Positions 26,228-42,140 of a stretch of 64,000 bases of DNA are shown here, one piece after another. The first letter of the stretch is position 1, and every line of letters starts with the position of its first letter. The DNA lies in IMG/VR virus record IMGVR_UViG_3300032324_000909, positions 76,532-140,531 of that record. The stretch is one strand, 5' to 3'. The notes under the pieces were generated by a model. The model was not told where the DNA came from and made no database searches. It worked only from the letters and a program-made list of their open reading frames with translations. The position numbers and the translations under genes are program-made. Source of the DNA: a virus (taxonomy: Duplodnaviria; Caudoviricetes).

Positions 26228-26572
26228 TTAATTCTGTAGACTTGCGTAACCCCAAATATTATTACCTGTTTCATTACAGTATAATCTAATATGACTAACA
26301 GGCGAGTCCATAAAAGCGGGCGCGGCATAGCCTGACGCAACCTGACTAAATTCATATATGTCAATGCCCTCATAGATGCCACCAGTCTGAAAAACAGCTG
26401 ATCCAGATAATGCTGTTTTACACTGTACTCCAACTGTTACAGTACCGGATTTATTGCCGTAAACTGCAAGCATGATATTTCTAGCCACCGCAACGTTTGC
26501 CCATTCCCCAGTAAAGGGAGTGGCCTGTCCTGTAGCTAAACTCGCTGTTCCAATGAATGAATATGCTGGCAT
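26228..26572 (-). CDS. small beta-rich putative virion protein
   Basis: ATG 26572 follows GTGTAATA motif. Confidence 0.6.
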   Translation of the reverse strand: MPAYSFIGTASLATGQATPFTGEWANVAVARNIMLAVYGNKSGTVTVGVQCKTALSGSAVFQTGGIYEGIDIYEFSQVASGYAAPAFMDSPVSHIRLYCNETGNNIWGYASLQN

Positions 26573-26625
26573 AAACAATATTACACGCTATTTTGGAATT
26601 TGACAGCAGTTTATCTATAATTAAT

Positions 26626-26754
26626 ATGGACGAAATTAACAAAATTTTTGTGCAGATAGCTTCATATAGAGATCCGGAGCTACTACCAACCATAAAAGAC
26701 TGTCTCGACAAGGCAAAATATCCAGAAAATCTTACTTTTGGTATATTGGTGTAA
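26626..26754 (+). pseudogene. truncated GT60 (GlcNAc transferase-like) gene remnant
   Basis: MDEINKIFVQIASYRDPELLPTIKDCLDKAKYPENLTFGILV* matches the GT60 N-terminal motif, stops after 42 codons. Confidence 0.75.
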
Positions 26755-26779
26755 TATAAAATATTTCGAATAGATAGTA

Positions 26780-27199
26780 ATGAAAAAGATAACTGCACAA
26801 AAAATACTTAGAAATATATGTGCAGACTATTCAGTAAAAATACGTTTTCAACAAAAATTAAAAAACTACACCGGATCCATTGTTGATGGGCTATGTTCGC
26901 CATGCCCCCAAAAACGAGTTATTTATATTAATAAAAGTTTCTCAAATAATAGAATGGCTTCCGCCATGTTTCATGAACTTGGACATATATACTGTATGGA
27001 TCATGGCATTTGGAAAAAATTTCATGAAGAAGTAGTGTCGCCACAAATAGCATTTAAAGTAGAAAACTGGATAGAATGGTGGGCAAAAAAAGAATGGGAC
27101 GCAAGAAAAATGAGAAAAATATTTGGACACTATAGCTTTTCTTATTCTAAATCTAGAGAGAGAGAAATACTAGAATGGATAAAAAAACATTACAGTTAA
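26780..27199 (+). CDS. HExxH metallopeptidase-like protein
   Basis: MFHELGH. Confidence 0.6.
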   Translation: MKKITAQKILRNICADYSVKIRFQQKLKNYTGSIVDGLCSPCPQKRVIYINKSFSNNRMASAMFHELGHIYCMDHGIWKKFHEEVVSPQIAFKVENWIEWWAKKEWDARKMRKIFGHYSFSYSKSREREILEWIKKHYS

Positions 27200-27244
27200 A
27201 ATTATATTGACTTTTGTTAAAACATATTCTATATTACTAGAATA

Positions 27245-28141
27245 ATGAGTAAAATTATTGCCATAGGAGACTTGCATAATCATTGGGCTCAAGCTCAATC
27301 GATTATTGACAAGTATATTGATACACACAAGATTGTTCTATGTGGTGACTATTGGGATGATTGGAATGATACTGCTATTGATGCAGAACAAACAGCCCGA
27401 TGGGTTAAACAATGTTTAGCTAATCCAAACATTATTATGCTCATGGGCAATCATGACATAAATTATGCCCATTTTAACCTAAGGCCCGGTTCCAGTCTTG
27501 GCAATCAGATCTATAATTGCTCAGGATACACCCCAGCCAAGGACGATGCTATCAATCGCATTATGACTAATGATGATTGGGACAAGATAAAGCTTGCCCA
27601 CAAAGAAAATGGTTTTTGGTTCTCTCATGCTGGGTTCCATCCTTTCTGGTTCTCTAGCCCTCCTTATGGAATGGATGATGAGATTATTGAGATAAAGCTC
27701 AAGAAGATTCAGAAGGCTATCGAGGATAGAGAGTTTAGTAATGAGCTTGGTGCTGCTGGAAGGTGTAGAGGTGGCATTCATCGAGTTGGTGGATTGCTTT
27801 GGAGGGATCAAATAAGGGAATCCTATACTGGTTCTTATTGGAATGATGAGTCTGGTATTAAGCAAGTAAGTGGTCATACCCCCATGCGAAATGGAATCGA
27901 TGTTGAAGAGACTTCAAACAAAGGTCTTTGTATTGATATTGATTGTGGACTATCTCAGGCGCTTGAAATCCTAGAAGATGGTACATATAATATTATTGAC
28001 ACTGGACTTGAGAACTTTTACAGAGCATCAGAAAGAAAGTTCGTTGAACAAGAAAAGAAGAATAAGGAAGAACAGAAGAAGAAATATCTCTATAACCTTG
28101 GAGCATATGATGACATCTATAACAAACTAAACAAATCGTGA
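27245..28141 (+). CDS. calcineurin-like metallophosphoesterase
   Basis: GDLH, GDYWD, GNHD, SHAG, GHT. Confidence 0.9.
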   Translation: MSKIIAIGDLHNHWAQAQSIIDKYIDTHKIVLCGDYWDDWNDTAIDAEQTARWVKQCLANPNIIMLMGNHDINYAHFNLRPGSSLGNQIYNCSGYTPAKDDAINRIMTNDDWDKIKLAHKENGFWFSHAGFHPFWFSSPPYGMDDEIIEIKLKKIQKAIEDREFSNELGAAGRCRGGIHRVGGLLWRDQIRESYTGSYWNDESGIKQVSGHTPMRNGIDVEETSNKGLCIDIDCGLSQALEILEDGTYNIIDTGLENFYRASERKFVEQEKKNKEEQKKKYLYNLGAYDDIYNKLNKS

Positions 28142-28335
28142 AAACTATTAGAATGGAAGTAGAATTAACTTATGATAATTATATTATGCATGAGAATAAT
28201 TCGGATGAGATTAAATGGTTCTACAAAGACATTTTAGAAAAGAAAGTATGTGAAGATGGATCTCCTAATTTAATTTTACATTCTAATGAAATAGGTGATG
28301 AGGTTGGTCTTATTAAAGTATTAAAAATTTTATGA
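28138..28335 (+). CDS. hypothetical protein
   Basis: 65 aa, start/stop overlaps both sides. Confidence 0.6.
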   Translation: MKTIRMEVELTYDNYIMHENNSDEIKWFYKDILEKKVCEDGSPNLILHSNEIGDEVGLIKVLKIL

Positions 28336-28691
28336 AGAAGATACTAAAACCAAAACAGATCGAGGAAGCAATTTACTTCTCAGACTTTACAGGAGAACCT
28401 TTTGATGCTAGGTTCAGACATCCTCCTGTAGAGCTTAAAATGAATTTTAATTACGGATCAAAGTATGATGGGTCTGAAATTAATTTGCACTTATCTGATA
28501 AAGATATGGAGCCTATTTTAGATCTTATTCAATCTAAGCTAAATCCAGATTTCAAGAAGAGTTTGCAACAAGATATTACAGAAAATACTCTAGAATTTGA
28601 TAACGCCGTGGATTCAAAAGACCCAATAATGTGTGATTATTATATCTCATGCTATAATCTCTTTAAAAAGCTTTTAGGTAATGGTGAATAA
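28332..28691 (+). CDS. hypothetical protein
   Basis: 119-aa ORF. Confidence 0.7.
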   Translation: MKKILKPKQIEEAIYFSDFTGEPFDARFRHPPVELKMNFNYGSKYDGSEINLHLSDKDMEPILDLIQSKLNPDFKKSLQQDITENTLEFDNAVDSKDPIMCDYYISCYNLFKKLLGNGE

Positions 28692-28728
28692 GCTTGACTA
28701 ATCATTTAAGGTTCTCTATTATAAGCAG

Positions 28729-29151
28729 ATGAACAGGCCAGTTATAGCATTTGACTTCGACTATACTTTAGCCATTGAAGAAGTGTCTGGAGGATGGATT
28801 GCTGTAGGTACAGGTGTTCTAAAGCCTATTCAAAAGATTATTGATATGGTTCTAGAGAAGGATAGAGAGGGGTTTGATATACATGTGGTTACCTATAGAA
28901 AAAAAGAAGATATCCCAGAGGTAGAAGAGTTTGTAAAGAAGCACAACCTACCTATTAAGGGTATTCATAGTACATCAGGAAAATCTAAGATTCCTATTCT
29001 AAAGAAGCTCAATTGTACTTTGATGGTTGATGATCAGGTAGAAGTCTGTACAGCCTGTATCATGAATGATATTCCCTGTTTGCTTGTTGATCATGGATTC
29101 TCTGGAACAAATAATGTTGTAGCAGATAGAATTGACAAAATTAAAGTTTAG
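28729..29151 (+). CDS. HAD-superfamily hydrolase-like protein
   Basis: FDFDYTL, VVT, MVDD; TTGACT-17-TATTAT promoter. Confidence 0.7.
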   Translation: MNRPVIAFDFDYTLAIEEVSGGWIAVGTGVLKPIQKIIDMVLEKDREGFDIHVVTYRKKEDIPEVEEFVKKHNLPIKGIHSTSGKSKIPILKKLNCTLMVDDQVEVCTACIMNDIPCLLVDHGFSGTNNVVADRIDKIKV

Positions 29152-29189
29152 GCTTGAAGTGTTCTAAAAATTCCTATAGTATAAAAACA

Positions 29190-29873
29190 ATGACCACAAA
29201 AGCACAAGCTAGAAAGAATCTTAAGAAGGCTGTTAAAGCCTATAAAGAGAAAGTTCGCCAACCTGTTACTGTTGAGCTTCAGGAAGAGCATATCCCAACT
29301 GTTCTGAAGGCATTGGAAGTGTATCAGCGCTTAAAACTTGGTCAGGTTAATATTGCCCTCGATGAAGCATTTGGCTATTCATTGGCCTATGAAGACAAAC
29401 AAGAGATTCATAATTGTGCTAGGAAGTATTTGTTCAAAGATACAGATTTAGAGAACAATCCTAATGTATCCTATGGCATCTATAACCAAGAGAAGGTTGG
29501 TGATGCAACTATGGCCTATGAGATTTATAAGGTTCTAGGGAGGTACAAAGCTTTTAAGGACAATGATGGGTGGGCAGATTATACCAGAAGGTTTGATAAG
29601 CCTCATTCTCATACTGGAGTTCCTTTGCCTGTAGTTCAAGGAGCTATTGAGCATAAGAACTTTAAGATCCCTAAGAAGCTTTGGAAGAAAATTGCTAATG
29701 CTATTGAGAATAAGGACACAGCTGATTGGAGTGATATCTGGAAGAGTATTGACAAAGCTATGCCTAAGTTGCCAAGAGGTGAGAAGTCAGAGATCTTTGG
29801 TGGAGACTTTATCAGTGATGGGTATTATGTAAAGGTTCATAGTCCAATTAAGCCTAAAGAGGAGGAGAAGTAA
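29190..29873 (+). CDS. hypothetical protein
   Basis: Start moved to ATG 29190 behind TTGAAG-17-TAGTAT. Confidence 0.7.
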   Translation: MTTKAQARKNLKKAVKAYKEKVRQPVTVELQEEHIPTVLKALEVYQRLKLGQVNIALDEAFGYSLAYEDKQEIHNCARKYLFKDTDLENNPNVSYGIYNQEKVGDATMAYEIYKVLGRYKAFKDNDGWADYTRRFDKPHSHTGVPLPVVQGAIEHKNFKIPKKLWKKIANAIENKDTADWSDIWKSIDKAMPKLPRGEKSEIFGGDFISDGYYVKVHSPIKPKEEEK

Positions 29874-29874
29874 T

Positions 29875-30222
29875 ATGATTGAACCAGTAATTGACATTGA
29901 TGGATATCCAACTGAAGAGACTGTAGAGTTTCTTGAACATTGGCAGAACTTTAAAGATGCTAAAGAAGCAATGGACTTTGCTTTGAAGGCATTAAAGAAG
30001 CTGTGCTATGCAACAGTGAAGCAAGAAAACAATTATATCTATATTGCAACTGGTGGGTGGAGTGGCTGTGAAGATATTATTAGAGCAATGAAGAAGAATT
30101 TTTATTGTAGTAATTTGCTTATTGCTTCATTATCTGGTGGTGGTTATTATTATGCTGACCCTTTTATTGATAATCTCAAGACTTATGACTTTAAAGTAAC
30201 AGTAGCCTATAAGATTGACTGA
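29875..30222 (+). CDS. hypothetical protein
   Basis: DGYPT...ATGGWSG.E motif; TAATATG coupling. Confidence 0.75.
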   Translation: MIEPVIDIDGYPTEETVEFLEHWQNFKDAKEAMDFALKALKKLCYATVKQENNYIYIATGGWSGCEDIIRAMKKNFYCSNLLIASLSGGGYYYADPFIDNLKTYDFKVTVAYKID

Positions 30223-30226
30223 TAAT

Positions 30227-30454
30227 ATGAATGACTCTATAGAACTAAAGAAAGATGAATGGTTGATGCCTAGAGTTTCAACTTATAATGTATATGATTT
30301 TCAAGCTATACAAAGAGCACCAGTGACTAAGAGATGGTATCAATTTTGGATACCAAAAGAGATGTTCATTTACACAACTGTTGAGAAAAGAAAGAAGACA
30401 ATTAAATTGCCTATAGTAAGGACTGATAGTGCCAACCTTGATGCATCCTTTTAA
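30227..30454 (+). CDS. hypothetical protein
   Basis: ATG after TAAT. Confidence 0.6.
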   Translation: MNDSIELKKDEWLMPRVSTYNVYDFQAIQRAPVTKRWYQFWIPKEMFIYTTVEKRKKTIKLPIVRTDSANLDASF

Positions 30455-30455
30455 T

Positions 30456-31010
30456 ATGAATGAATTTTTTAACTCTGAACCTTATATAGATAAAATCTAT
30501 AACTGTACTTGTAGAGATTGTGGAAAGGAATTTACTATAAATGCTCAATGTCATCCTAAGACTGGTTTTCCTGTATCTTTTATTTCAAAGTATTGTGAAG
30601 AGTGTAATATGAAGCTAAGAGATGCTTTTAATACTACAATACCTATTAATGTCTCAATTACTAATACTAAAGTACCTCAAAAGAATGTAGAAGGTCTAGA
30701 AAATACAATTGAGACTTTGGCAACTAGTATTGTCAATGTTAAAGATGAGTTTGGAGCATTTAAGAAGCATATTGAGCATGATATTGAACACAATAAAAAT
30801 GTAGTAGAAGACAAGCTCTATAGTCACAATAAGAGAATTGATGATAATAAGCTCAACCTAGATGTAATCAAATCTACTCAAAATATGATCAATGAGAGAC
30901 ACTTTAATCATATTAAGAAATTAACAAGAGAATCTATGATTATGTTCTTTATGGTCATTCTGCTTTTTGTATTTGACTTAGCTACAATTTGGTGTTATAT
31001 TAGGAAATAA
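30456..31010 (+). CDS. Zn-ribbon + coiled-coil + C-terminal TM protein
   Basis: CRDC...CEEC; hydrophobic C-terminus. Confidence 0.65.
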   Translation: MNEFFNSEPYIDKIYNCTCRDCGKEFTINAQCHPKTGFPVSFISKYCEECNMKLRDAFNTTIPINVSITNTKVPQKNVEGLENTIETLATSIVNVKDEFGAFKKHIEHDIEHNKNVVEDKLYSHNKRIDDNKLNLDVIKSTQNMINERHFNHIKKLTRESMIMFFMVILLFVFDLATIWCYIRK

Positions 31011-31011
31011 T

Positions 31012-31296
31012 ATGATGACTCCTTATAAACCCAAACCATCACCAGAAGTTGTTGCTGCATCAAAGAGATCAGCTATTAGAGAAGCTCTTTTAGAACTTTT
31101 AATTCAAGAGAAGAAAGCAGAGATTACTATTAGTTGTGGACTCAGAGCTTTGGATCAAATTCTCTTTATGCCAGAACATATGAGAACTATGGGTGAAACA
31201 TTTCTAGAAATTGCTGGATGTGTAATTCAAGTAGAAAGAGATTTTGAATTAGAACCTTGGAAAATTGTTTATAATGGAGATGTAATTTTTAATTGA
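31012..31296 (+). CDS. hypothetical protein
   Basis: TAATATG coupling. Confidence 0.65.
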   Translation: MMTPYKPKPSPEVVAASKRSAIREALLELLIQEKKAEITISCGLRALDQILFMPEHMRTMGETFLEIAGCVIQVERDFELEPWKIVYNGDVIFN

Positions 31297-31297
31297 T

Positions 31298-31765
31298 ATG
31301 AACAAAGAAGAACCCTGTAAAGAAATAATGTTACACAATACAACAGATGCTCAAGTATGGACTGATGAGTTCATTAAGACATTTAGAAAGTTATATCCTC
31401 TTATAGGAGATGCTTATATAGCTCTATCACATTTTGATGACTTTAGAGATTGGGTCTTTGGTTGGTTCTGTAATGCTATTCAAACTGCAATTGTTTTGAC
31501 TAATGCTCAAAGAGATAAGAGATATGTTTATATTCTTCAGAGTAATAGTGGAGCAATTGTAAATGTTTGGAATAATGGTTTTGAACCATCTGAAGATGAG
31601 TTAGATGAAGCATATGCAGTACATCTTGGAAGACATGCTCTCTGTGATGGTAAGAAGCATAGTGCAGCAACTAACTGCACTCTTTATAGATGGAACAAAT
31701 ATGAAGGACTTGAGCATTGGAATGGAAAGGCTGTAGCTCAAACCATATACAACTGGGTAGAATAA
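31298..31765 (+). CDS. hypothetical protein
   Basis: 155 aa; TDAQVW..EF...GWFCNAI. Confidence 0.7.
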   Translation: MNKEEPCKEIMLHNTTDAQVWTDEFIKTFRKLYPLIGDAYIALSHFDDFRDWVFGWFCNAIQTAIVLTNAQRDKRYVYILQSNSGAIVNVWNNGFEPSEDELDEAYAVHLGRHALCDGKKHSAATNCTLYRWNKYEGLEHWNGKAVAQTIYNWVE

Positions 31766-31766
31766 T

Positions 31767-32201
31767 ATGAATGCAGAAGAATATTTAAAAAATAGAATTA
31801 GGGAACTTCAAATTGAAGTTGAAAAGCTCAGTAAAGAGAATAAACAACTAAAAGGCTTTAGAACTAATGCTGACAACTATCTTTGTGAATTAGCTGAGTC
31901 AGATTTTACAGAGAAGTATTGGGACAATAGAAAATCTAAGAACAATGAGTGGTTTGATTATAACAGAGCAAAAGCCAGAATCATTGAAGGTATGCTCTAT
32001 GAAGAAATTGCTAGAGAATTAGGATCACTTACTAAATGCTGGGCTGGTGATAATAATGGTATGGTAGCTGGTACAATGAGTGATAAGAAGAACTGTAGAT
32101 GTAGAGCTTGTATTGCTTTAAACAAATTAAATTACTTGACTCATAGAAAAGAAAAGCCAGAATGGATGTCAGATTATAACTGGAATATGACTAGAGATTA
32201 A
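31767..32201 (+). CDS. hypothetical protein
   Basis: 144 aa; coiled coil, CRCRAC. Confidence 0.65.
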   Translation: MNAEEYLKNRIRELQIEVEKLSKENKQLKGFRTNADNYLCELAESDFTEKYWDNRKSKNNEWFDYNRAKARIIEGMLYEEIARELGSLTKCWAGDNNGMVAGTMSDKKNCRCRACIALNKLNYLTHRKEKPEWMSDYNWNMTRD

Positions 32202-32202
32202 T

Positions 32203-32619
32203 ATGAACAGAGAAATTAGAAAACTAACTAAAAAGATTGATGAGCTTCAAAAGCAAATCAATTACCAGAATGAATGTATTATGGATCAGTCTATGATTAT
32301 TCAAAAGTTAACTGAGAAGCTTGTAGTCATTCCAACCTATCCATCTACTCCAAGTATTGATCCTCATTTTGGAGTAGATATTCCTTATGTTCCATCTACT
32401 CCAAGTATTGATCCTCATTTTGGAGTAGATATTCCTTATGTTCCATGTAAAGGACCAGATTGTGAAAACAGAACAACAACTCCTGTAACACATACATCCT
32501 ATGATGGCACAAAGACTACTTTGCCAGTCACATTACCAGAAAAATGGCAGATGCCTAAAGCAGGATCAGTAACGGAAGGGTCTTCAGGATCTATGAGATA
32601 CAATCAAACTTCTTTTTAA
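32203..32619 (+). CDS. hypothetical Pro/Thr-rich protein with internal duplication
   Basis: PSTPSIDPHFGVDIPYV twice. Confidence 0.65.
   Translation: MNREIRKLTKKIDELQKQINYQNECIMDQSMIIQKLTEKLVVIPTYPSTPSIDPHFGVDIPYVPSTPSIDPHFGVDIPYVPCKGPDCENRTTTPVTHTSYDGTKTTLPVTLPEKWQMPKAGSVTEGSSGSMRYNQTSF
32341..32446 (+). repeat. perfect 51-bp tandem duplication, each unit with an 11-bp inverted repeat
   Basis: Unit at 32341 and 32392; ATCTACTCCAA...TTGGAGTAGAT. Confidence 0.95.
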
Positions 32620-32620
32620 T

Positions 32621-32878
32621 ATGCATAAGAAAGATTACAAGATTGGGTCGTTTAAATTTCTTCAAGCAGGGAGTCATTTTGACTATGCTCAAGTATCTAA
32701 CAAGAAAGGAGAAGTTATCTCAATATTTTTAGATCCAAGAGATGATACTTGGTATTTACTTCATGATTCGAACACAAAATTTAATGTTGTGAACTTGAAT
32801 AGGTTTGTTGAAGAGCCATTCTATAGATATAAGAAGGATCAAAGAGCAAAAGAGGCTCTACAGGAGTTTAATTCTTGA
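32621..32878 (+). CDS. hypothetical protein
   Basis: 85 aa, TAATATG coupling. Confidence 0.65.
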   Translation: MHKKDYKIGSFKFLQAGSHFDYAQVSNKKGEVISIFLDPRDDTWYLLHDSNTKFNVVNLNRFVEEPFYRYKKDQRAKEALQEFNS

Positions 32879-32903
32879 CATCTCCTCCTAAAGAATATAG
32901 AAT
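32875..32903 (+). promoter_or_regulatory. sigma70-type promoter, leaderless geometry
   Basis: TTGACA-17-TAGAAT, ATG 6 nt later; near-identical copy at 41752. Confidence 0.8.
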
Positions 32904-32909
32904 AAGATT

Positions 32910-33104
32910 ATGAATGAATACAGTATCCGTAACGCAGAACAGTTTTTAGAAGATCTAAACAATGCAACTATTGAAAAGTTATATTTTGAAACAAAAAATA
33001 AAGATTATTATGAAACACCAGATTGGTTGCAAGAAAGATATAATCAAGCCATGCAAAATCTTGGTAGGTGGTTGGTAAAAAACGACCTTGACATCTCCTC
33101 CTAG
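32910..33104 (+). CDS. hypothetical protein
   Basis: 64 aa behind promoter. Confidence 0.65.
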   Translation: MNEYSIRNAEQFLEDLNNATIEKLYFETKNKDYYETPDWLQERYNQAMQNLGRWLVKNDLDISS

Positions 33105-33122
33105 AGCATGTGGAATAAAAGC

Positions 33123-33278
33123 ATGAAAGAAAAGAAAGTCAAATTCCTTTTAGGACAAGGTTGTATTATCATCGAAACAACCGAAGATACAACCGTTTTG
33201 CGGGACAAACACGGCAATACCGTAAAGGTTGACCAATTCGGTAAAGTTCTATGGTATCCAGTTGACAAACCGCACTAA
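33123..33278 (+). CDS. small hypothetical protein (not in ORF track)
   Basis: MKEKKVKFLLGQG...VDQFGKVLWYPVDKPH, 51 aa, behind TTGACA-17-TGGAAT. Confidence 0.6.
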   Translation: MKEKKVKFLLGQGCIIIETTEDTTVLRDKHGNTVKVDQFGKVLWYPVDKPH

Positions 33279-33290
33279 TTCATTTAGAAT
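33262..33290 (+). promoter_or_regulatory. sigma70-type promoter, leaderless geometry
   Basis: TTGACA-17-TAGAAT, ATG 6 nt later. Confidence 0.8.
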
Positions 33291-33296
33291 AAGACT

Positions 33297-33506
33297 ATGC
33301 AAATAGAAATTAATGATGAACATTTAGATTTGGCATTTGCTAAGTCATTGGCTGAGACTATTGAGATTCTTTCAAATAATACTAAAAATCTCAAAAAGAT
33401 AAAGAATCCAAGGCCTTATATTCTTGAAGACATTGATGAGAATGAAAAAGATATCGAAGCATTGAAGAGAACCTACAAATACTATACAGGAGAAAAATAT
33501 GAGTGA
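33297..33506 (+). CDS. hypothetical protein
   Basis: 69 aa. Confidence 0.65.
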   Translation: MQIEINDEHLDLAFAKSLAETIEILSNNTKNLKKIKNPRPYILEDIDENEKDIEALKRTYKYYTGEKYE

Positions 33507-33816
33507 CCTTAAAGAAGATCTAGAAGATGATAGGCCAAAATATAAAATAGTCTATGATGAGATGTCCTGTTATAATTGGGAGTTTAGTATCAATGGTGTC
33601 TGGAGAAGTGGGGAGGTAGATGAGGGCGTTAAGCAACCCGAAGAAGATGACGAACTTCTTGATTATCTTTTATTAAAACTTAAAAAAGAAATTAAAAGAG
33701 GTACTTGTGATTTTAAAAGTTTAGTGGAATGTTTTCAGTATGATGATTATGAATCAGATAAAGGCTACTGTGAGACTTGCGGTCATCATGGAGGAACAAC
33801 AACTTGGAATATATGA
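33499..33816 (+). CDS. acidic hypothetical protein with C-terminal CxxC
   Basis: CETCG. Confidence 0.65.
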   Translation: MSDLKEDLEDDRPKYKIVYDEMSCYNWEFSINGVWRSGEVDEGVKQPEEDDELLDYLLLKLKKEIKRGTCDFKSLVECFQYDDYESDKGYCETCGHHGGTTTWNI

Positions 33817-33992
33817 ACGACGAACAAACGCCCCATGTATTAGTAGAAGGCGAATGGGTTCCTGTATCTAAAACAGAATTCGTTGGCATCTCTGAAGATT
33901 TATTTGGTCAAGATGTATACGAGTTTAAATATCTTGACAAGTGTTACTCTTCTCATGTAATATTAAAATATGAAAGTAAAACAACTAATTGA
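33813..33992 (+). CDS. hypothetical protein
   Basis: ATGA overlap with upstream gene. Confidence 0.6.
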   Translation: MNDEQTPHVLVEGEWVPVSKTEFVGISEDLFGQDVYEFKYLDKCYSSHVILKYESKTTN

Positions 33993-34188
33993 AATGCTAC
34001 AGCAGTTTGATCCCGAGATGCTTGTTATGGTACAAGGCTATGAGGGAGGAATTGATGCTCCAGAAAAGCTTTATCAGACTGCTATTAGACTAAATGTCCA
34101 TGAAGAGTGGTATTATGGAAAGCATGAAGTTCATCATGTAACTGACACAGAGAAAGCAGATTGTGAAGCTGTTATAATTCCTAGGTAA
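33970..34188 (+). CDS. hypothetical protein
   Basis: MKVKQLIEMLQQFDP...GYEGG common small phage protein pattern. Confidence 0.7.
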   Translation: MKVKQLIEMLQQFDPEMLVMVQGYEGGIDAPEKLYQTAIRLNVHEEWYYGKHEVHHVTDTEKADCEAVIIPR

Positions 34189-34231
34189 TTTTCTTGCCCA
34201 GCTATAAAAATCTCTATATACTTTAAAGATT

Positions 34232-34909
34232 ATGAAAGATTTATTTTACAAGTCTGTTAAAATTTCCAGTACAGATTATGACGTTCTGTTTTGGGGCTGT
34301 ATGCACTATGGACATGATCCCAAGTGGGATGTCCCTATCTGGAAGACAAGGGGTTATAATAGTTCCAGAGAGCATGACGAGGGACTAATAGAGAATTGGA
34401 ATAAAAAGGCAAATAAAAACACTATAGGGTTTCTTCTCGGTGATACAATTTTTGGGTATGATGCAGACGAGCGACTACTAGAGCTTTTTCGAAGACTAGA
34501 GTATAAGACCCTGTATGTACTGCCCGGCAATCATCAGGCTGGCTATAAGCAGATTTTAGACAGGTGCGAGAACAATACTTTCTACATGAGCAATATTTGG
34601 GATCATAATGATAAAAGGGAAATTATATTTGTCCCTAACTATCTAGAGACGTTTGTGAATGGTCAGCCTATTGTTCTAAGTCATTTTCCTATACTGTCTT
34701 GGAATGGAGCAGGCAAGGGGGCATACCATCTTTTCGCGCACGTTCACGGTAATCTCAATAGATCAGAACTTGGAAGGATGTATCTAAAGACAGGATTGAA
34801 CTATGAAGTTTCTGTTGAGAATTGCCCTAGTCCTATTACATTTGGTGAACTGAGGGCCGAGATGATAAAGAGAACACAAAGTTGTCCAGATCATCATAAT
34901 GACACTTGA
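34232..34909 (+). CDS. calcineurin-like phosphoesterase
   Basis: MHYGH, LGD, GNH, SHFP, HVHG. Confidence 0.82.
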   Translation: MKDLFYKSVKISSTDYDVLFWGCMHYGHDPKWDVPIWKTRGYNSSREHDEGLIENWNKKANKNTIGFLLGDTIFGYDADERLLELFRRLEYKTLYVLPGNHQAGYKQILDRCENNTFYMSNIWDHNDKREIIFVPNYLETFVNGQPIVLSHFPILSWNGAGKGAYHLFAHVHGNLNRSELGRMYLKTGLNYEVSVENCPSPITFGELRAEMIKRTQSCPDHHNDT

Positions 34910-34941
34910 CATTTTATCCTAAATCAATTATTATCAAAATA

Positions 34942-35298
34942 ATGAAATACCAAATCCGTAAATGTGAAGAGATTACAATCTGGCAAGCTACCGAGGTCGT
35001 AGACATTGATCCAGAGATGTTCAAAAATCTTGAAGAAAATCCCTACACTGGTAATACCGAAGAACAATTCCTTAATTATATTTCAGGTTTTATCGACTCT
35101 TGTCGCTGGGATGGATTTCCTTTTGATCTAGATAGCGATGTTGCCGATCAGCTTGACAAACTTGTGGAAAACGTAAGATGGACAGAATATGCGAATTCTG
35201 TTCATAAGGGGGAAAACTCTTGGATGGAAATCGGACAGGTAAATGATGAATACAAAAATACAGGCGGCTTTGAGTCTAGATTTAATACAATTCAATAA
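34942..35298 (+). CDS. hypothetical protein
   Basis: Start moved to ATG 34942; the track's TTG is the -35 box. Confidence 0.7.
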   Translation: MKYQIRKCEEITIWQATEVVDIDPEMFKNLEENPYTGNTEEQFLNYISGFIDSCRWDGFPFDLDSDVADQLDKLVENVRWTEYANSVHKGENSWMEIGQVNDEYKNTGGFESRFNTIQ

Positions 35299-35312
35299 AT
35301 AATACACCAGCA

Positions 35313-35867
35313 ATGCAGACCAAATGTTATCTTGATATGGACGGTTTGCTTGCTAATCTATTTGATTTTATTTCTAATAAAATTATTAATAAAAATTATA
35401 TTGACGCAACAGATTCAGAAAAACTGAAAATTAAAAGCGTTTGGGTTGATAAGGATTTGTTTTATCAAAAACTAGGTACGCCAAAAAGTTTATTTGCCAA
35501 TCTTGAACCATATAGTACTAATGACACTTTAATAAATAAAGTAATTGAAAAATTTGGCGGTTTTTACATTTGCTCCCACCCATCTAAAATGTCAGTAGAC
35601 CAATGTATAGAAGGAAAATTAGAATGGATAGATAAACACATTGTTCCAAAATATTCCCAACACTTCAAGGGCGCAGTTTTTCCAGATAAAAAATCAAAAT
35701 ACGCCTTAAATAACGACGGCTCTAAAAATGTTTTAATAGATGACTTTCAACCATATATAGATAGCTGGACAGAGACCGGTGGCATTGCTATTAAATTGCA
35801 AAGCGCGCTATTTGATAACGAAAGCATATCTTCATATCTTGAAAAAGAATTTAAAAAAATTAATTGA
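35313..35867 (+). CDS. 5'(3')-deoxyribonucleotidase (HAD)
   Basis: LDMDGLLA, GKLEW, LIDD. Confidence 0.82.
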   Translation: MQTKCYLDMDGLLANLFDFISNKIINKNYIDATDSEKLKIKSVWVDKDLFYQKLGTPKSLFANLEPYSTNDTLINKVIEKFGGFYICSHPSKMSVDQCIEGKLEWIDKHIVPKYSQHFKGAVFPDKKSKYALNNDGSKNVLIDDFQPYIDSWTETGGIAIKLQSALFDNESISSYLEKEFKKIN

Positions 35868-35898
35868 CATAAATATAAAAATAAACAATAATAAAAAT

Positions 35899-36531
35899 AT
35901 GGGCATGTTCGACACAATTCTTATTAAGCGCAAGCTTCCACTAAACAAAGAACTCAAAAAGGCTTTTCCTGATACCGATTGGTCTAAAGAGGGCTTTCAA
36001 ACAAAGGATATAGAAAACACCATGACCACTTACACCATTAAGGGTACTGGACTTTACTTTGATAAAGTTGATGGAGAGATGGTTAGAACCATGACAGAGG
36101 AAGACGAAAAGAAGGCCCGAAAGAGCAAGAGGTGGGTATGGCCCTATGAATTTGTTGAGTCTGGCCGAGAGACCGTAAAAGTACCATATCATGGCACTAT
36201 TAATTTTTATCATTATAAAGATGATGCAGATGGTAATACTTGGGATATCGAATTTGATGCCGTTTTTAATACTGGGAAACTTACCAATATTAAACTAGCA
36301 AAAGGAGAAATCTCAAGTACGGCAGAAGAGAATGCCGCAAGAGAAAAGCATTGGAAAGACCAACTCGCCGCACATGAGGCGCATCCTTGGACGCGGACTA
36401 AAAGGGCTCTAAATAAAATTACTTTTGGTTATTGGACAATTTTCTGGAGTAGAGTTGTTTCAAAAGGTCTCTACTGGATTGCACAAAAAATTCAAAAGCT
36501 TCAAATTTGGGTTATTAGAAATATTGCATAA
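35899..36531 (+). CDS. hypothetical protein
   Basis: MGMFD...FQTKD pattern; ATG 35 nt after TTGACA. Confidence 0.75.
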   Translation: MGMFDTILIKRKLPLNKELKKAFPDTDWSKEGFQTKDIENTMTTYTIKGTGLYFDKVDGEMVRTMTEEDEKKARKSKRWVWPYEFVESGRETVKVPYHGTINFYHYKDDADGNTWDIEFDAVFNTGKLTNIKLAKGEISSTAEENAAREKHWKDQLAAHEAHPWTRTKRALNKITFGYWTIFWSRVVSKGLYWIAQKIQKLQIWVIRNIA

Positions 36532-36532
36532 T

Positions 36533-36637
36533 ATGAATAAAAATAACAACCCATTTTGGCCCTATTTAATTAGCGCTGTATTTGGGTTAATTATTTGGTA
36601 CGGACTTTTTACCTTAATAAAGTACTTCTTTTTTTAA
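36533..36637 (+). CDS. small membrane protein
   Basis: 34 aa, one TM segment. Confidence 0.5.
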   Translation: MNKNNNPFWPYLISAVFGLIIWYGLFTLIKYFFF

Positions 36638-36638
36638 A

Positions 36639-37247
36639 ATGTCACACTATTGCCTAAACGCTTCTACTCCTCAACACCTGTACGGATATGTCGCCGCAGA
36701 CATACTGCATGGGCTGGATGGACGCAAAGGCCTAGAGCCATGCGTGATAATCGGGGTCACTAGCATTCCATCTAGAGCATTGCACTTCTCCATACTATGC
36801 GAATCAGGCGCACAATGGGCGAGGATACCATTGCACAAGTTATACCACGAAGAGCCAGAGAACGGCGTAGAACCCCACCCAATCACACACCTGCAAATGT
36901 GGGATTGCCATGGCTGGGATTTCGCAGTGTGCAGATACGAGTATTTGCGCGAGATGTCATGCCATTACCTTGACCGAGATGGCAACAGGGTTCCGGCCAG
37001 CTATTGGTTCACCTTGGATCATACCGATAATGGATTCAGTCAGTATCCATCAGAGCATAAATGCTATCATCTCCTGCTACTGGCAGATGGGTCAGGCCAG
37101 ATAGCCGCACAGCCTAACAACCGAATCGTCTGGCACGACGACTCTTTTGTGAAAGATGGATCAATTCCCAAGTATAAGGTTATGCCGCCGGTAACTTGGC
37201 ATTCAGAAATTGGACGCAACGCACAGGACACCGCGTTTACTCAATAA
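36639..37247 (+). CDS. hypothetical phage protein, GC-richer than flanks
   Basis: GAQWARIPLH, QMWDC, EHKCYH, AQPNNR. Confidence 0.75.
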   Translation: MSHYCLNASTPQHLYGYVAADILHGLDGRKGLEPCVIIGVTSIPSRALHFSILCESGAQWARIPLHKLYHEEPENGVEPHPITHLQMWDCHGWDFAVCRYEYLREMSCHYLDRDGNRVPASYWFTLDHTDNGFSQYPSEHKCYHLLLLADGSGQIAAQPNNRIVWHDDSFVKDGSIPKYKVMPPVTWHSEIGRNAQDTAFTQ

Positions 37248-37251
37248 TAAA

Positions 37252-37449
37252 ATGAAAAGAATTCGGGCTACTATTAGTGACGGTATTGATGAAGACTGTA
37301 ACCTGCTATTTGATAATGTTGATATATTGAATGCACAAAGGGCCTATATAAATGGTAATAGCATAAATATAATTCCAAGAAATGGCGGAGACGAAATAAC
37401 GATTGAATTTAATAAAGAAATTTTATATTTAGATGGTTTAGAAATATGA
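37252..37449 (+). CDS. hypothetical protein
   Basis: ATG 37252. Confidence 0.55.
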   Translation: MKRIRATISDGIDEDCNLLFDNVDILNAQRAYINGNSINIIPRNGGDEITIEFNKEILYLDGLEI

Positions 37450-37643
37450 CAACTAAAAAATACCTCTATAATAAAGATAGATCAGAGAATGCAATTAATT
37501 TTCTTAGTGAAGTTATACAACTTTCTAAAAAATACAATTTATCACTTACCCATGAAGATTTCCATGGTGGTTTTGAAATTAGATCATATGATGAAGCTTT
37601 TTCAGACTGGTTAAAACAAGCTGCTGAAGTAAATTATGAATAA
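37446..37643 (+). CDS. hypothetical protein
   Basis: LTHEDFHGGF. Confidence 0.65.
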   Translation: MTTKKYLYNKDRSENAINFLSEVIQLSKKYNLSLTHEDFHGGFEIRSYDEAFSDWLKQAAEVNYE

Positions 37644-37920
37644 AATTAGATTTAATGATAAACTATATGTAGATACCCCTCGACCCCTAACAAAAAAAAC
37701 AAGGAAATTTTTCAGGAACGCGATATCGGCTAAAAAACATTTTTGTTATAATTTTTTCAAGAATAAGTTTAGTATTGGTCTTTGGGATATTCCGGATACA
37801 AAATATCAAAAGTATCCGAAGCTTACCTTCGCAAACTTTAAATCATATATAAAAATAGGATTTCTTTGGAAAAAGTATTTACTTGAAATTGTTTGGAACA
37901 AGTGGAACTATACTTTTTAG
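37636..37920 (+). CDS. hypothetical protein
   Basis: 94 aa. Confidence 0.55.
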   Translation: MNKIRFNDKLYVDTPRPLTKKTRKFFRNAISAKKHFCYNFFKNKFSIGLWDIPDTKYQKYPKLTFANFKSYIKIGFLWKKYLLEIVWNKWNYTF

Positions 37921-37938
37921 AGAGATGGATTTATTTTA

Positions 37939-37967
37939 TTGACATTTTAGTACAATAAATATATCAT
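37939..37967 (+). promoter_or_regulatory. sigma70-type promoter, leaderless geometry
   Basis: TTGACA-17-TATCAT, ATG 6 nt later. Confidence 0.75.
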
Positions 37968-37973
37968 CATAAA

Positions 37974-38600
37974 ATGAAGAACATTTTCCTTATTGCAGAT
38001 CTCCACTTTGGGGACGAGGATATGTGTAGTTTAATAAAAGAAGATGGGCACCCCTTACGCCCATTTAAGAGTATAGAAGAGCATGATACTACATTGATTG
38101 AGAACTGGAACAAAGTTGTCAATGATGGTGACAAAGTCTATGTTCTTGGTGATGTTGCACAAAATAAAAAAGATCTAGAGAAGTTCACTGAGCTGCATGG
38201 TAAGAAGATTCTCATTAAGGGAAACCATGATATCTATCAGATGAAAGAGTATGCGAAGTATTTCAAAGACATTCGTGGCACTCATCGTTTAGAAAACGGT
38301 ATTCTCATGAGTCATATCCCAATTCATCCTAGCTCCTTTGGTAAGGCTCATAAGGTGAATGTGCATGGTCACATCCATGATAAAGTTGTAAAGATAAATG
38401 AACCTGATGTAATTTTAGACAGATCTGTTACATACAATATTAAACCAGATCCAAGATACTTCTGTGTTTCTTGTGAACATATAAACTATACCCCAATGGA
38501 GCTTGGTGCTATTGAGATAGAAGTTTTTGGATTTGATTCTCGTGCAAAAGCTTTGGATGAACTTGCGGCACAAGCCCAAGAGCTTAATATGGGATATTAA
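37974..38600 (+). CDS. calcineurin-like phosphoesterase
   Basis: ADLHFG, LGD, GNHD, SHIP, HGHIH. Confidence 0.88.
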   Translation: MKNIFLIADLHFGDEDMCSLIKEDGHPLRPFKSIEEHDTTLIENWNKVVNDGDKVYVLGDVAQNKKDLEKFTELHGKKILIKGNHDIYQMKEYAKYFKDIRGTHRLENGILMSHIPIHPSSFGKAHKVNVHGHIHDKVVKINEPDVILDRSVTYNIKPDPRYFCVSCEHINYTPMELGAIEIEVFGFDSRAKALDELAAQAQELNMGY

Positions 38601-38601
38601 T

Positions 38602-38961
38602 ATGAACAATCATAATAAAATTATTGAATTAAATAAGATTTGGTATAACACTATTTGTGGCGATTACCATAAGGATCGTGATTGTCATTTTTATATTATT
38701 ACAGATTATCAGTATGGTGAAAAAGTTGTTTATACAGTCCAACATGCTGGTTACATCAACCATGATTACGAAGATACAGATTGGGGGACTATAGAAGAAG
38801 CTGAAGTAGAACTTATTAAAGTTATATCTAAATCTATCATCAATGAAATTGATTGGTATTTGGAACATTATGGAGATCCAGATTGGGATCAGCATCCGAG
38901 ATACGACAAGGATGACTTGGAAGAGATTATAACTAGGGTAATGCTTATAACAAGTAAATGA
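38602..38961 (+). CDS. hypothetical protein
   Basis: HKDRDCHF motif; TAATATG coupling. Confidence 0.7.
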   Translation: MNNHNKIIELNKIWYNTICGDYHKDRDCHFYIITDYQYGEKVVYTVQHAGYINHDYEDTDWGTIEEAEVELIKVISKSIINEIDWYLEHYGDPDWDQHPRYDKDDLEEIITRVMLITSK

Positions 38962-39125
38962 ATAGTGTAAAGATAGCATCAGTTTGGGTAGAAGATATTC
39001 AGCAATGGATTCCCTTGTCGCAGATTACCGTTATACAAAGATATACCCATGAAGGCAAAAACTGCATCCAGTTTAAGCACGAAGATAAAATACTTGAGAG
39101 TTATGTAGAGTATAAAGAGGTGTAA
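38958..39125 (+). CDS. small hypothetical protein (not in ORF track)
   Basis: MNSVKIASVWVEDIQQWIPLS..., 55 aa, ATGA overlap. Confidence 0.55.
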   Translation: MNSVKIASVWVEDIQQWIPLSQITVIQRYTHEGKNCIQFKHEDKILESYVEYKEV

Positions 39126-39133
39126 ATAATAAT

Positions 39134-39955
39134 ATGAATAAATATACACTGCCCGAATCTGTTAACCTTGAAGAGATGAAGGCCTCTTTCAAGCAACATG
39201 GTTATGCTGTAGCAAGAGGCCTCTTTTCTGAAGCTGAAGTAGAAGAAATTAAAAATACCTTTGATCGAATTGCAAAGAATGGTACTATTGAAGATTATTT
39301 TTATCCTGTCTCTAAAGATGAATCAAACGGAGATCCTTTAAAAGAATTTCCGAGAGTGATGCAGCCACATCGTTTTGACTCAGTATCACGCAAAAATCTT
39401 GTCCATCCAGCTGTTCTTTTTTGCTTGAAAGAGCTTGTGCAAGAAGATGTACTTGCTGCTCAAAGTATGTTTTACTACAAGCCACCGGGCTCTAGAGGAC
39501 AAGCAATGCATCAAGATAATTTTTATCTTTTAGTTGAACCACAAACATGTGTTGCGGCGTGGACTGCTATCGATGATGCAGATCCAGAAAATGGTGGAAT
39601 GTATCTAGTAGCAGATACGGCAGAAGAGGAAATTATATGCCCTAAAGAAGCCAATGCAACCGAGTCATTCACAACACATCTTGTACCAACCCCAAAAGGG
39701 AAAAAGGCTGTTCCTTGTATTATGAAATCAGGTGATACATTATTCTTTAATGGTAGTTCAATTCATGGCTCAGGACCAAATAGATCCAAAGATAGATTTC
39801 GTAGATCCTTTATCTGCCATTATGTTCCAAAATCCACCCAGCGCATTAGCAAGCATTATCTACCCCTGATAACACCTGAAGGGGAAGATATTGTGATCGA
39901 TGCTAATAATAGTGGTGGGCCCTGTGGTAGTACATGGGAGGGTGGACAGCATTAA
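39134..39955 (+). CDS. phytanoyl-CoA dioxygenase-family 2OG-Fe(II) oxygenase
   Basis: KPPG..GQAMHQDN, WTAIDD...NG, HGSGPNRS..FRR. Confidence 0.9.
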   Translation: MNKYTLPESVNLEEMKASFKQHGYAVARGLFSEAEVEEIKNTFDRIAKNGTIEDYFYPVSKDESNGDPLKEFPRVMQPHRFDSVSRKNLVHPAVLFCLKELVQEDVLAAQSMFYYKPPGSRGQAMHQDNFYLLVEPQTCVAAWTAIDDADPENGGMYLVADTAEEEIICPKEANATESFTTHLVPTPKGKKAVPCIMKSGDTLFFNGSSIHGSGPNRSKDRFRRSFICHYVPKSTQRISKHYLPLITPEGEDIVIDANNSGGPCGSTWEGGQH

Positions 39956-40159
39956 ATGCAACATAATGATATTCATGTTATTGGTCATGTAACAGTGGGT
40001 CTATTAGCATTTGGAATGCTGATGTTCTTTTGGATGATATCAAAAGGAGTTAAGAAGGTAAAGAAGAAAGGCGAAAAAGGAACCAAAAGACTTAGAAAGT
40101 TTAATCTTTGGCTAAAGAAATTTGAAGAGTTCAAGAGGAGTTGGCACTATGAGATATAA
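39956..40159 (+). CDS. small membrane protein
   Basis: One TM then basic tail. Confidence 0.55.
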   Translation: MQHNDIHVIGHVTVGLLAFGMLMFFWMISKGVKKVKKKGEKGTKRLRKFNLWLKKFEEFKRSWHYEI

Positions 40160-40421
40160 AAATATAATTATATTATGTATATTACTGGCGACAAACACGT
40201 ATGCATACGAAAAGCCAGAATTTAAATTAATTGACTATATTGGCGCTTACCATGATAGTAGAGACGTTATATAGGATATTAATAGGTTACAATCCAAGTA
40301 CCATCTTAAAGTATCCAAGAAAAAAGACTGCCAATTAGGTGGTATTATCAGTAGGGATTTTAAGTTTCATGGGGGTAATCAACCCATTGTTGCCCAAACT
40401 GCACTAATGTTTGCATTTTAA
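40149..40421 (+). pseudogene. signal-peptide protein gene interrupted by in-frame TAG
   Basis: 41 codons, TAG 40272-40274, then 48 more open codons to TAA just before the next promoter. Confidence 0.5.
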
Positions 40422-40458
40422 TATTGACATAGCTATCATATATCAGTAACATATTTAT

Positions 40459-41280
40459 ATGTACAACTGGTTTAACTACTCACGGATTAAGAGGCAACTT
40501 GAGAACCAATTAGAGGAAAACGCAAGGCTAAGGGGGGAAAATAAGACCCTAGAAGATATTCTCAAGGCCATCCAAGAAGATGGAACTACAGAACACAATA
40601 ATGCAATAAATCTTAGAGAGTCAGTAGCACATTTAAGAGAAGAGGCAGAGAAGTTTTATAATGAAAATGTACAGCTTACCAAGGAAGTTAGAGATCTCAG
40701 GCATCTAAAGACTGAGAACGTTGAGTTGATTGAGAGGCTTCGGAAGGAAGGAAATAGTTATGGCATAACCTTTAATGAGGCTAAGACCCAAATTATTCAG
40801 AATGATTATAAGAAGTGCGCCCAACAGAGGGATGAGTATAAGCATCAACTCAATGCTGCTAATAAAGAGATTGAAGCATTAAAATTAATGCATGGGGAAA
40901 GAGAAAAGAAATTAAAAACATATAATAAGAGTTTACAATCTCAGATCACAAGTCTTAAAGAAGACAATGAATCTCAAAAGCATCCTATGTATCCGCTTCA
41001 TTGGGGTGGATATGATAAAAACATTATTGATCTTGTCGAGTCCGAATTGAATAACCAAGACCACGTAGAAGGCGAGTGGATGTCCACATGGTGTTATAAA
41101 TGTCAACATATAAAAGAACAATGCAAGTGTGATAAATATTTAAATATACAAGATTTGCCGAAGACATTTCCTAACGAGTTTCAAGAGCCAACGTGGGAAG
41201 AGGCGGCAAGCGATTTAGCTTTAAAATTAGTAAAGCTAGAAAAGAAAATACAAGACTTGACACGTCTTCCAAAAAAGTAA
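40459..41280 (+). CDS. coiled-coil hypothetical protein
   Basis: Long heptad region, CYKC...CKC; TTGACA-17-TAACAT upstream. Confidence 0.7.
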   Translation: MYNWFNYSRIKRQLENQLEENARLRGENKTLEDILKAIQEDGTTEHNNAINLRESVAHLREEAEKFYNENVQLTKEVRDLRHLKTENVELIERLRKEGNSYGITFNEAKTQIIQNDYKKCAQQRDEYKHQLNAANKEIEALKLMHGEREKKLKTYNKSLQSQITSLKEDNESQKHPMYPLHWGGYDKNIIDLVESELNNQDHVEGEWMSTWCYKCQHIKEQCKCDKYLNIQDLPKTFPNEFQEPTWEEAASDLALKLVKLEKKIQDLTRLPKK

Positions 41281-41293
41281 TATTATACATAAT

Positions 41294-41542
41294 ATGCCAA
41301 CAGGAACATTAACTTTTAATTTGCCAGAAGAGCAATCAGACTTCAAGCTTGCATCCAATGCCACTAGCTGGTATTTGGTTGCTTGGGACATAGATCAATA
41401 CCTAAGAGACAAGATCAAGTATCCAGAAGACACTGGAGACAATAAAGGAAAGTCCGATGAGTATTATGAAGCACTCGAAGAAGCTAGAAAAGAGTTTTGG
41501 GAGATCATGACACAAAGAGGTCTGGACTTTGATAATTGGTAA
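41294..41542 (+). CDS. hypothetical protein
   Basis: FNLPEE...WDIDQYLR..IKY common phage pattern. Confidence 0.7.
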   Translation: MPTGTLTFNLPEEQSDFKLASNATSWYLVAWDIDQYLRDKIKYPEDTGDNKGKSDEYYEALEEARKEFWEIMTQRGLDFDNW

Positions 41543-41548
41543 TAATAT

Positions 41549-41755
41549 ATGAAACCTGAATGGGAATTTAGAAATGATAGTGAGGGTAATCTTGATGAGA
41601 TTACCGCAGAAGATGTTCAGTTCTTTCATCTAGAAAGAATGGATAATGGTCATTGGTGGCTAGGCGTAACTCTTCAGGATGGTTCTAGGATTACAGCCAA
41701 TCTCATCTCTGATTTTAATAAAAGAATTAATTGTGTAGCATATAAAGAGGATTGA
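41549..41755 (+). CDS. hypothetical protein
   Basis: HLERMDNGHWW. Confidence 0.7.
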   Translation: MKPEWEFRNDSEGNLDEITAEDVQFFHLERMDNGHWWLGVTLQDGSRITANLISDFNKRINCVAYKED

Positions 41756-41780
41756 CACATCTTCCTAAAGAATATAGAAT
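41752..41780 (+). promoter_or_regulatory. sigma70-type promoter, leaderless geometry
   Basis: TTGACA-17-TAGAAT, ATG 6 nt later. Confidence 0.8.
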
Positions 41781-41786
41781 AAGATT

Positions 41787-42137: not shown

Positions 42138-42140
42138 AAT

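Follow-up and report, generated by a model that had tools for sequence, protein, structure and literature searches.

A CG-free island in the hypervariable accessory-gene module of a large lake phage, and the regional avoidance of a short DNA word

The DNA analyzed here (the window) is a stretch of 64,000 nucleotides, positions 76,532 to 140,531 of the IMG/VR virus record IMGVR_UViG_3300032324_000909, and all coordinates below are those of the window. The whole record (140,531 bp, hereafter G000) closes on itself through a 123-bp end overlap, as a circular assembly. It encodes DnaB, a DnaE-type polymerase, a RecA-like protein, tail proteins and eight tRNAs, a gene content which identifies a large tailed phage. 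The subject of this study is an island of ten closely packed plus-strand open reading frames (ORFs) of 79–227 codons, in which a run of 3,211 nt contains no CG dinucleotide. The ratio of observed to expected CG is given as O/E. The genes and features of the island and of its left side are the following:

27245..28141, plus strand: calcineurin-like phosphoesterase gene, a conserved anchor with its own CG O/E of 0.37; in relatives, CG falls just downstream of it
28694..28731, plus strand: sigma-70-like promoter TTGACT-17-TATTAT (consensus match), at the left start of the CG-free DNA
28729..29151, plus strand: gene of a HAD-like phosphatase/nucleotidase, 140 aa (PHROG 1238/415, weak Pfam 5-nucleotidase)
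28759..29255, no strand: second CG-free run, 497 nt, in the HAD-like gene and into the beginning of the following one
29190..29873, plus strand: ORFan gene, 227 aa (67 protein clusters, no Pfam), 3 CG versus 25 expected
29362..32572, no strand: CG-free run, 3,211 nt, 0 CG
29875–30222, 30215–30454, 30429–31010 and 31012–31296, plus strand: first part of a set of eight small packed ORFs, no family assigned
31298–31765, 31767–32201, 32203–32619 and 32621–32878, plus strand: second part of the same set, no family assigned

When the ten island ORFs were scanned with Pfam and PHROG, nothing was assigned except the HAD-like fold of 28729–29151, a gene whose sole CG sits in TCGA and which forms the conserved left flank of a variable block. 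The ORF 31767–32201 showed a weak EcoRV-family match (E = 0.004), which fell short of the cut-off, and no assignment was made. The 227-aa ORFan is the island gene most broadly common to different phage backbones. Its AlphaFold2 model was poor (predicted local distance difference test, pLDDT, 65; predicted template modelling score, pTM, 0.38), and its hits in a protein atlas were all unnamed viral clusters (score 0.84). In six of the eight small ORFs of 29875..32878, the CG O/E is 0.

An earlier note on this DNA, made by reading its letters, had described a run without CG from 29362 to 32572. A direct count gives 0 CG there, and the bounding CGs at 29360 and 32573 stand exactly where they had been placed, which makes this gap of 3,213 bp the longest between two CGs in the window. 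The next ones measure 498 bp (28758 to 29256), which corresponds to the second run that had been noticed at 28760–29255, and 335 bp. The window has 1,471 CGs in total (O/E 0.77), while the whole of G000 has an O/E of 0.85 and no gap above 505 bp away from the island locus. The 3,211-nt interval holds 431 C and 645 G, from which 86.6 CGs are expected by base composition. The expectation of "dozens" was thus sound, with about 87 on this basis and about 103 by codon resampling. GC (O/E 1.18) and CC (1.12) are not depleted in the same interval, in line with the remark that GpC is common in the island.

Synonymous codons were re-drawn for the ten island ORFs (28729–32878) in 2,000 draws. With the codon usage of G000, the draws had a mean of 103 CGs and a minimum of 74, versus 7 observed, and the CG-free gap was at most 467 bp in any draw; the shuffling that the earlier note had put forward as a possible refutation therefore yields no comparable run. 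With the island's own codon usage, the mean was still 47.7 CGs (minimum 28), which indicates that CG is avoided at codon junctions too. Arginine is encoded nearly always by AGA or AGG, and NCG and CGN codons are almost gone, with a normal amino-acid content. These null models show a purge at the level of the nucleotide sequence, which affects each of the three codon phases. The depletion has a shoulder from about 27,000 to 33,100 (O/E per kb 0.36, 0.32, 0.09, 0, 0 and 0.18), and a gene-by-gene CG mosaic extends past the island to about 42 kb. Directly after the island, 33173–33271 holds eight CGs in 100 bp, in a 56-codon ORF (33108–33278), and this CG-rich neighbor suggests that adjoining cassettes come from different compositional pools.

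Relatives were found in IMG/VR by anchoring on the phosphoesterase gene 27245–28141 and on the 227-aa island gene. This gave dozens of related loci, in many of which CG collapses just downstream of the anchor for 2–8 kb. Local CG-poor zones of 2–10 kb, in genomes that are otherwise CG-normal, were found on at least 15 more viral contigs of lake metagenomes; these zones span at least three unrelated phage backbones and sit in a hypervariable region of small ORFans, in which sigma-70-like promoters abound and a 38-nt promoter cassette is shared. Five related records were taken whole (G001 to G005). One of them, G003 (154 kb), is 95–98% identical to G000 throughout, and the island region has been swapped between the two:

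29199..33087, no strand: replaced block, without alignment to G003 except two pieces of about 250–300 bp

The matching slot of G003 contains another set of genes of about 7 kb, likewise CG-poor (O/E 0.1–0.2). The right breakpoint of the swap falls on a copy of a promoter cassette, of which the window has several:

32874..32918, plus strand: cassette copy 1, TTGACA-17-TAGAAT-6-ATG, at the downstream edge of the island
33087..33131, plus strand: cassette copy 2, the right breakpoint of the G000/G003 replacement
33261..33305, plus strand: cassette copy 3, more diverged (repeat comparison)
41752..41789, plus strand: further cassette copy, with 3 mismatches

Recombination moves the cassettes from phage to phage, and at least one breakpoint lies at this shared promoter cassette. 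Its 38 nt are nearly identical across G001–G004. An exact-match scan of all viral contigs with a 29-nt core returned 25 stretches, ten of them on new contigs, and the 800 bp on each side of these copies have a CG O/E of 0.24–0.28. The stricter statement that every cassette-driven gene is CG-free was discarded, as it holds in G002 and fails in G000 and G003. The spacer of the cassette is almost invariant (CACCTCCTCCTAAAGCATA), in the copies of G001–G004 too, and resembles the 3′ end of 16S rRNA (anti-Shine-Dalgarno). Such conservation suggests that an additional factor may be bound there.

G001 (218 kb), G002 (a 130-kb fragment) and G005 (177 kb) do not have this DnaE, and have about 25–31 ORFs in common with G000, namely the genes of its promoter-rich zone plus RNR, PhoH, dCMP deaminase, lysozyme and an HNH gene; no structural or replication genes are among them. 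A local CG trough is present in G001, G002, G003 and G005, the remaining DNA having an O/E of about 0.8 (about 0.55 in G005), and G001 contains a run of 3,832 bp without CG. G004 (IMGVR_UViG_3300032223_001557, a 42-kb fragment) starts inside a CG trough, and both G004 and G005 are mildly CG-depleted throughout (O/E about 0.5). Island genes are up to 87% identical at the amino-acid level in phages of unrelated backbone, and different, non-homologous genes fill the CG-free slot in different phages. The trough is absent from the related loci L020, L023, L024, L026, L027, L029 and L080, and in L081 a 2-kb CG-free patch surrounds the shared gene in CG-normal DNA. A DNA search of the island against cultured phages gave no match. 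The DnaE search returned matches of only about 25% identity, and the RNR search gave no clue to the host. The contig ends lying inside islands (G001, G004, G005) were considered as physical termini and set aside, as breaks at repeated cassette copies in a hypervariable zone. A search for Terminase_6N, as a pointer to the type of packaging, found nothing.

The CGs that remain give key information on what is avoided. The seven left in 28,729–32,878 lie in TCGA (three), TCGC, TCGT, GCGC and ACGG. Only two are in VCGB (V being A, C or G, and B being C, G or T), versus about 64 expected. The contexts were compared in a pooled set of 1-kb windows with a CG O/E below 0.3 (107 kb) and in the remaining 1,014 kb. 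The depleted/normal density ratio was 0.55 for TCGA, 0.11–0.20 for the six contexts with a T or A on one flank only (TCGB and VCGA) and 0.025–0.10 for the nine VCGB contexts. The bias is highly significant for the shares of both TCGA (p = 2e-38) and VCGB (p = 8e-28). The same order of TCGA, one-flank and VCGB contexts was found within G001 (0.51, 0.07 and 0) and G002 (0.18, 0.10 and 0.005), and in the independent sample formed by the ten new contigs found through the cassette (0.53, 0.17 and 0.044), and it also appears when contexts are measured by base-composition rho. Outside the islands the order is reversed: in the CG-normal parts of G000–G003, TCGA is the lowest (base-composition rho 0.47–0.66) and VCGB is neutral (0.95–0.97).

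From this gradation (TCGA about 0.5, one flank about 0.15, VCGB about 0.05), the avoided word is VCG, which is CGB on the other strand. The simplest rule which accounts for the three classes is a VCG reader for which TCGA is readable on no strand, the one-flank contexts on one and VCGB on two; TCGA is hardly more purged in the module than in other parts of the genome. When the windows were oriented by the coding strand, VCGA (0.150) and TCGB (0.145) were equally depleted. A reader of mRNA would spare one of these classes, and the word is therefore read on duplex DNA.

A few observations accompany this motif. The low TCGA of the CG-normal parts may mean that a TaqI-type site is avoided separately, over the whole genome. 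The "normal" part of G004, with a VCGB rho of 0.34 versus 0.89 for one-flank contexts, seems to follow the same rule in a milder form, over the entire fragment. A general avoidance of palindromes was ruled out, the other 4-bp palindromes without CG having 0.75–1.45 of their normal density. GGCC is lowered in the pooled depleted zones (0.41 of normal), and could be a second avoided site or an effect of lower C.

The family of the 227-aa gene (g29154; its 67 protein clusters are all metagenomic) exists in two states. Ten copies have 1–7 CGs versus 18–25 expected, and two are CG-normal, in G002 (24 versus 30 expected) and in L080 (20 versus 22 expected). On the protein tree, the two CG-normal copies stand apart: one has a CG-poor copy as its sister (support 100/99), and the other is placed within the main clade of CG-poor copies. 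The CG state has therefore switched at least twice. In the codon alignment, where the normal copy has CG, the purged copies have a synonymous NNT|G, CCT, GGA or GGT, or a change from Arg to Lys. One conserved Arg is kept as CGN, and it is CGA in a TCGA context in the CG-poor copies L001 and L002. Also, TG (1.15 versus 1.02) and CA (1.13 versus 1.03) are slightly higher in depleted than in normal zones, and CT/AG and GA/TC rise more. These shifts are the mark of a choice of other synonymous codons, not of the deamination of 5-methylcytosine, and the local loss of CG is due to selection, not to decay or ancestry. We show here that synonymous recoding brings genes into or out of the CG-free state depending on their genomic context, and that selection on the DNA sequence itself keeps the module nearly free of VCG, in this genome and on several unrelated backbones of lake phages. 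The CG-normal copy of G002 lies between two overlapping minus-strand ORFs of 364 and 272 codons (L003 8960–11396), and this 2.5-kb CG-normal insert within a CG-free zone may be a mobile element.

The island is not an isolated object but the most extreme part of a hypervariable module of small, co-directional accessory genes with sigma-70-like promoters:

26500..43600, plus strand: accessory-gene zone with host-type promoters and mosaic CG (promoter enrichment)

This zone makes up 12% of the length of G000 and has 11 of its 20 plus-strand matches to a promoter followed by an ATG (binomial p = 5e-6; these are matches to the consensus only). In the promoter at 28694 the ATG comes 6 nt past the −10 box, as in the shared cassette, a spacing which predicts that the mRNAs are probably leaderless. 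No stem-loop terminator was detected at the cassettes, since the 90 nt upstream of four copies fold like shuffled sequences (z −1.6 to +1.3). The zone also encodes an IrrE-like metalloprotease, three calcineurin-like phosphoesterases, HAD and NT5C nucleotidases, a PhyH dioxygenase and an HNH gene, and the CG O/E of its genes spans 0 to 1.5. As the promoters match the sigma-70-like consensus, the accessory module probably uses the host RNA polymerase and would thus be expressed early. With the copy at G000 26438–27166, outside the window, the phosphoesterases form four paralogues (27245, 34232 and 37974 in the window), and the two HAD/NT5C nucleotidases (28729 and 35313) are scattered with them in accessory DNA.

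The avoidance of restriction sites in phage genomes (Rusinov et al., 2018; PMC6286503) is the closest precedent. There, as in our data, selection removes a short word from the duplex DNA of a phage with double-stranded DNA, here a probably lytic one. The known cases concern defined sites of 4–8 bp, belong to Type II enzymes that have been identified, and are assessed by counts over the complete genome, whereas the word purged here is a degenerate 3–4-mer (VCG or VCGB) without known cognate enzyme, and in a module of 2–10 kb only. Thus the word is strongly under-represented, VCGB having about 0.05 of its normal density in depleted zones, but not over the genome, as its rho is about 0.96 outside the island. 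The finding is a regional avoidance of a recognition site, a degenerate word of 3–4 bases with no known enzyme. We found no description in the literature of a regional CG purge in phages, and the new features are the gradient of the motif, the strand symmetry, the occurrence on several backbones and the gene family with two states.

Two other systems resemble the module. The first-step-transfer (pre-early) region of phage T5 classically lacks EcoRI sites, and the lack of target sites in that segment follows an accepted logic. Within a few kb it groups small genes behind strong promoters, which have to act while the rest of the genome is still at risk, as would be the case here. Located in the terminal repeat, it has a deoxyribonucleotidase and a host-takeover function in its gene set (annotation of NC_005859). 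The clustering of small genes behind strong host-type promoters is found in the accessory zone as well, judged from consensus matches (the 11 of 20 given above). The avoided word is far shorter here, and the terminal repeat, the two-step entry and the injection stop signal are features of T5. BLASTP against T5 A1 and Dmp gave no homologues (E-values 1.5 to 9), and only general enzyme classes (phosphoesterase, HAD nucleotidase) recur between the two gene sets.

T4-type phages have hyperplastic regions with promoter-early stem-loop (PeSL) cassettes (Arbiol et al., 2010; PMC2839356). From the abstract of that study, these regions are, like the present module, hypervariable and made of small non-essential ORFans with repeated strong sigma-70-like cassettes, and are shuffled by recombination between the cassettes. 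A repeated promoter cassette among small ORFans, with recombination at the cassettes, is indeed what we observe. The differences are that no significant stem-loop terminator accompanies the cassette here, that the backbones are unrelated to T4, and that a dinucleotide purge is not mentioned in the abstract in question. The module is organized like a PeSL region and would work like the T5 pre-early region, but it belongs to neither class, because of the absence of a stem-loop with the cassette in the first case and of A1/Dmp homology in the second.

To explain this selection, we propose, with a probability of roughly 0.5, that a DNA-reading defence of the host hits the probably early module before the phage counters it. 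The selecting agent would be a factor in the infected cell which reads VCG on double-stranded DNA, the likeliest candidate being a host defence of the nuclease type whose recognition word is very short. The factor would act at the time when the module must function, probably right after entry and before a phage product neutralizes it. The rest of the genome, with about 15 VCGB per kb, could retain its sites through later protection or later entry. A site read on one strand would give a nick and a site read on both a double-strand break, which would account for the graded purge. The second suggestion of the earlier note, a local purging of DNA exposed before protective modification, comes near to this proposal. 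It is the better fit of the note's two suggestions, the trait being positional, found across backbones, strand-symmetric on DNA and located in a zone of host-type promoters; early expression, first entry and a protective modification would be parts of it, and no methyltransferase was found.

Several points weigh against a host defence of this kind. The early timing is deduced solely from putative promoters matching the consensus. In G000 and G003, some of the genes behind the cassette have normal CG, and L080 has similar promoters and yet normal CG, so that an early-type promoter does not by itself impose the purge. The assemblies are circular (the 123-bp overlap) or broken at repeated cassettes, and thus lend no support to a first entry of the island. 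The reader, its host, the inhibitor and the protective modification are postulates of this proposal. Family scans and protein features gave no recognizable anti-defence features in the island proteins, and we know of no characterized enzyme with VCG or VCGB specificity. It is only tentatively, and with less confidence than in the proposal itself, that we consider its widest form: an undescribed reader of the three-base word VCG in lake bacteria or phages, which would act in the first minutes with a damage scaling with the number of strands read, and whose footprint would mark immediate-early, exchanged counter-defence modules of many unrelated large phages.

Other explanations have to be weighed. 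The most serious one, unlikely in our opinion, is that the phage avoids itself: the reader would be its own early short-word nuclease or DNA-modification enzyme, and the module would be kept free of the word in order to work or to stay unmodified. The pre-early functions of T5 and the frequent-cutting nickases of chloroviruses destroy host DNA, and the phosphoesterases, the two HAD/NT5C nucleotidases and the HNH gene of the zone form a set of the nucleotide-scavenging kind. The trait also moves with a shared pool of accessory genes over unrelated backbones, and a graded, strand-symmetric motif would suit any reader of duplex DNA. However, the genes common to all backbones are ordinary auxiliary genes, and no sequence similarity to T5 A1 or Dmp was seen. 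Neither a C5 nor an N4/N6 methyltransferase was detected in the six genomes G000–G005, and neither the thymidylate-synthase/hydroxymethylase family nor a T4-type glucosyltransferase in G000, the latter result being weak for PF09198, whose control was silent everywhere. A nuclease of the phage itself would still require the protection of the approximately 2,000 other VCGB sites of the genome.

The earlier note had also proposed a block acquired from a lineage that avoids CG. In its simple form, a recent import from a wholly CG-free donor whose composition is retained, this is improbable. What stands is the mobility: the block has been replaced between genomes that are 95–98% identical, its genes reach 87% identity in unrelated phages, and the patch of L081 indicates that the state can travel with a cassette. 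What fails is a donor that is CG-free throughout. The whole related records G001–G005 have local islands only (with the mild overall depletion of G004 and G005), non-homologous genes fill the CG-free slot in different phages, and the CG state switches inside one gene family, independently of ancestry. The other half of that proposal, the deamination of methylated CpG, or some other context-specific mutator, acting locally without selection, is disfavored further and very improbable. The slight rise of TG and CA and the many replacements of NNC|G by NNT|G would suit it, but the rise of CT/AG and GA/TC is larger, so that no matching excess of TG/CA exists. Moreover, the effect is local inside a genome that replicates as one, arginines are preserved by AGR codons with no CGN to TGN or CAN damage, a conserved Arg stays CGA in the tolerated TCGA context, and no methyltransferase was found in the phage genomes searched. 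A cause at the level of RNA or translation has a similarly slight chance, either as codon adaptation of highly expressed early genes or as a CG-reading RNase or RNA sensor acting on early transcripts. The island genes are all on one strand and probably co-transcribed, and NCG and CGN codons are nearly absent. Nevertheless, CG is avoided over codon boundaries beyond what codon usage predicts (47.7 expected, 7 seen), and the two one-flank classes are depleted alike on the coding strand, where a single-strand reader would exempt one of them.

Avoidance of a motif usually serves to infer the restriction systems that a phage has met. To our knowledge, the word avoided here is shorter and more degenerate than characterized specificities; it is purged from one functional module only, and the same rule operates on unrelated phage backbones in several lakes. 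Should the purge be due to a real enzyme, that enzyme would cut or bind DNA very frequently and be of a new kind. The footprint would then offer a sequence-only route to the genes of uncultured phages that must act first, which are the likeliest sources of new anti-defence functions, and as a VCGB-free, TCGA-exempt zone it could locate both the modules and the reader. The two-state gene family, with CG-free and CG-normal copies of one protein, is a ready natural experiment.

Two minor observations concern the genes of this region. Between 26780 and 34188, most genes are without a Shine-Dalgarno sequence and are linked by overlapping stop and start codons, which is a possible hint on translation initiation in the host. 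In the ORF 32203–32619, a 51-bp tandem duplication (32323–32424, 84% identical) repeats the peptide ..PSTPSIDPHFGVDIPYV..

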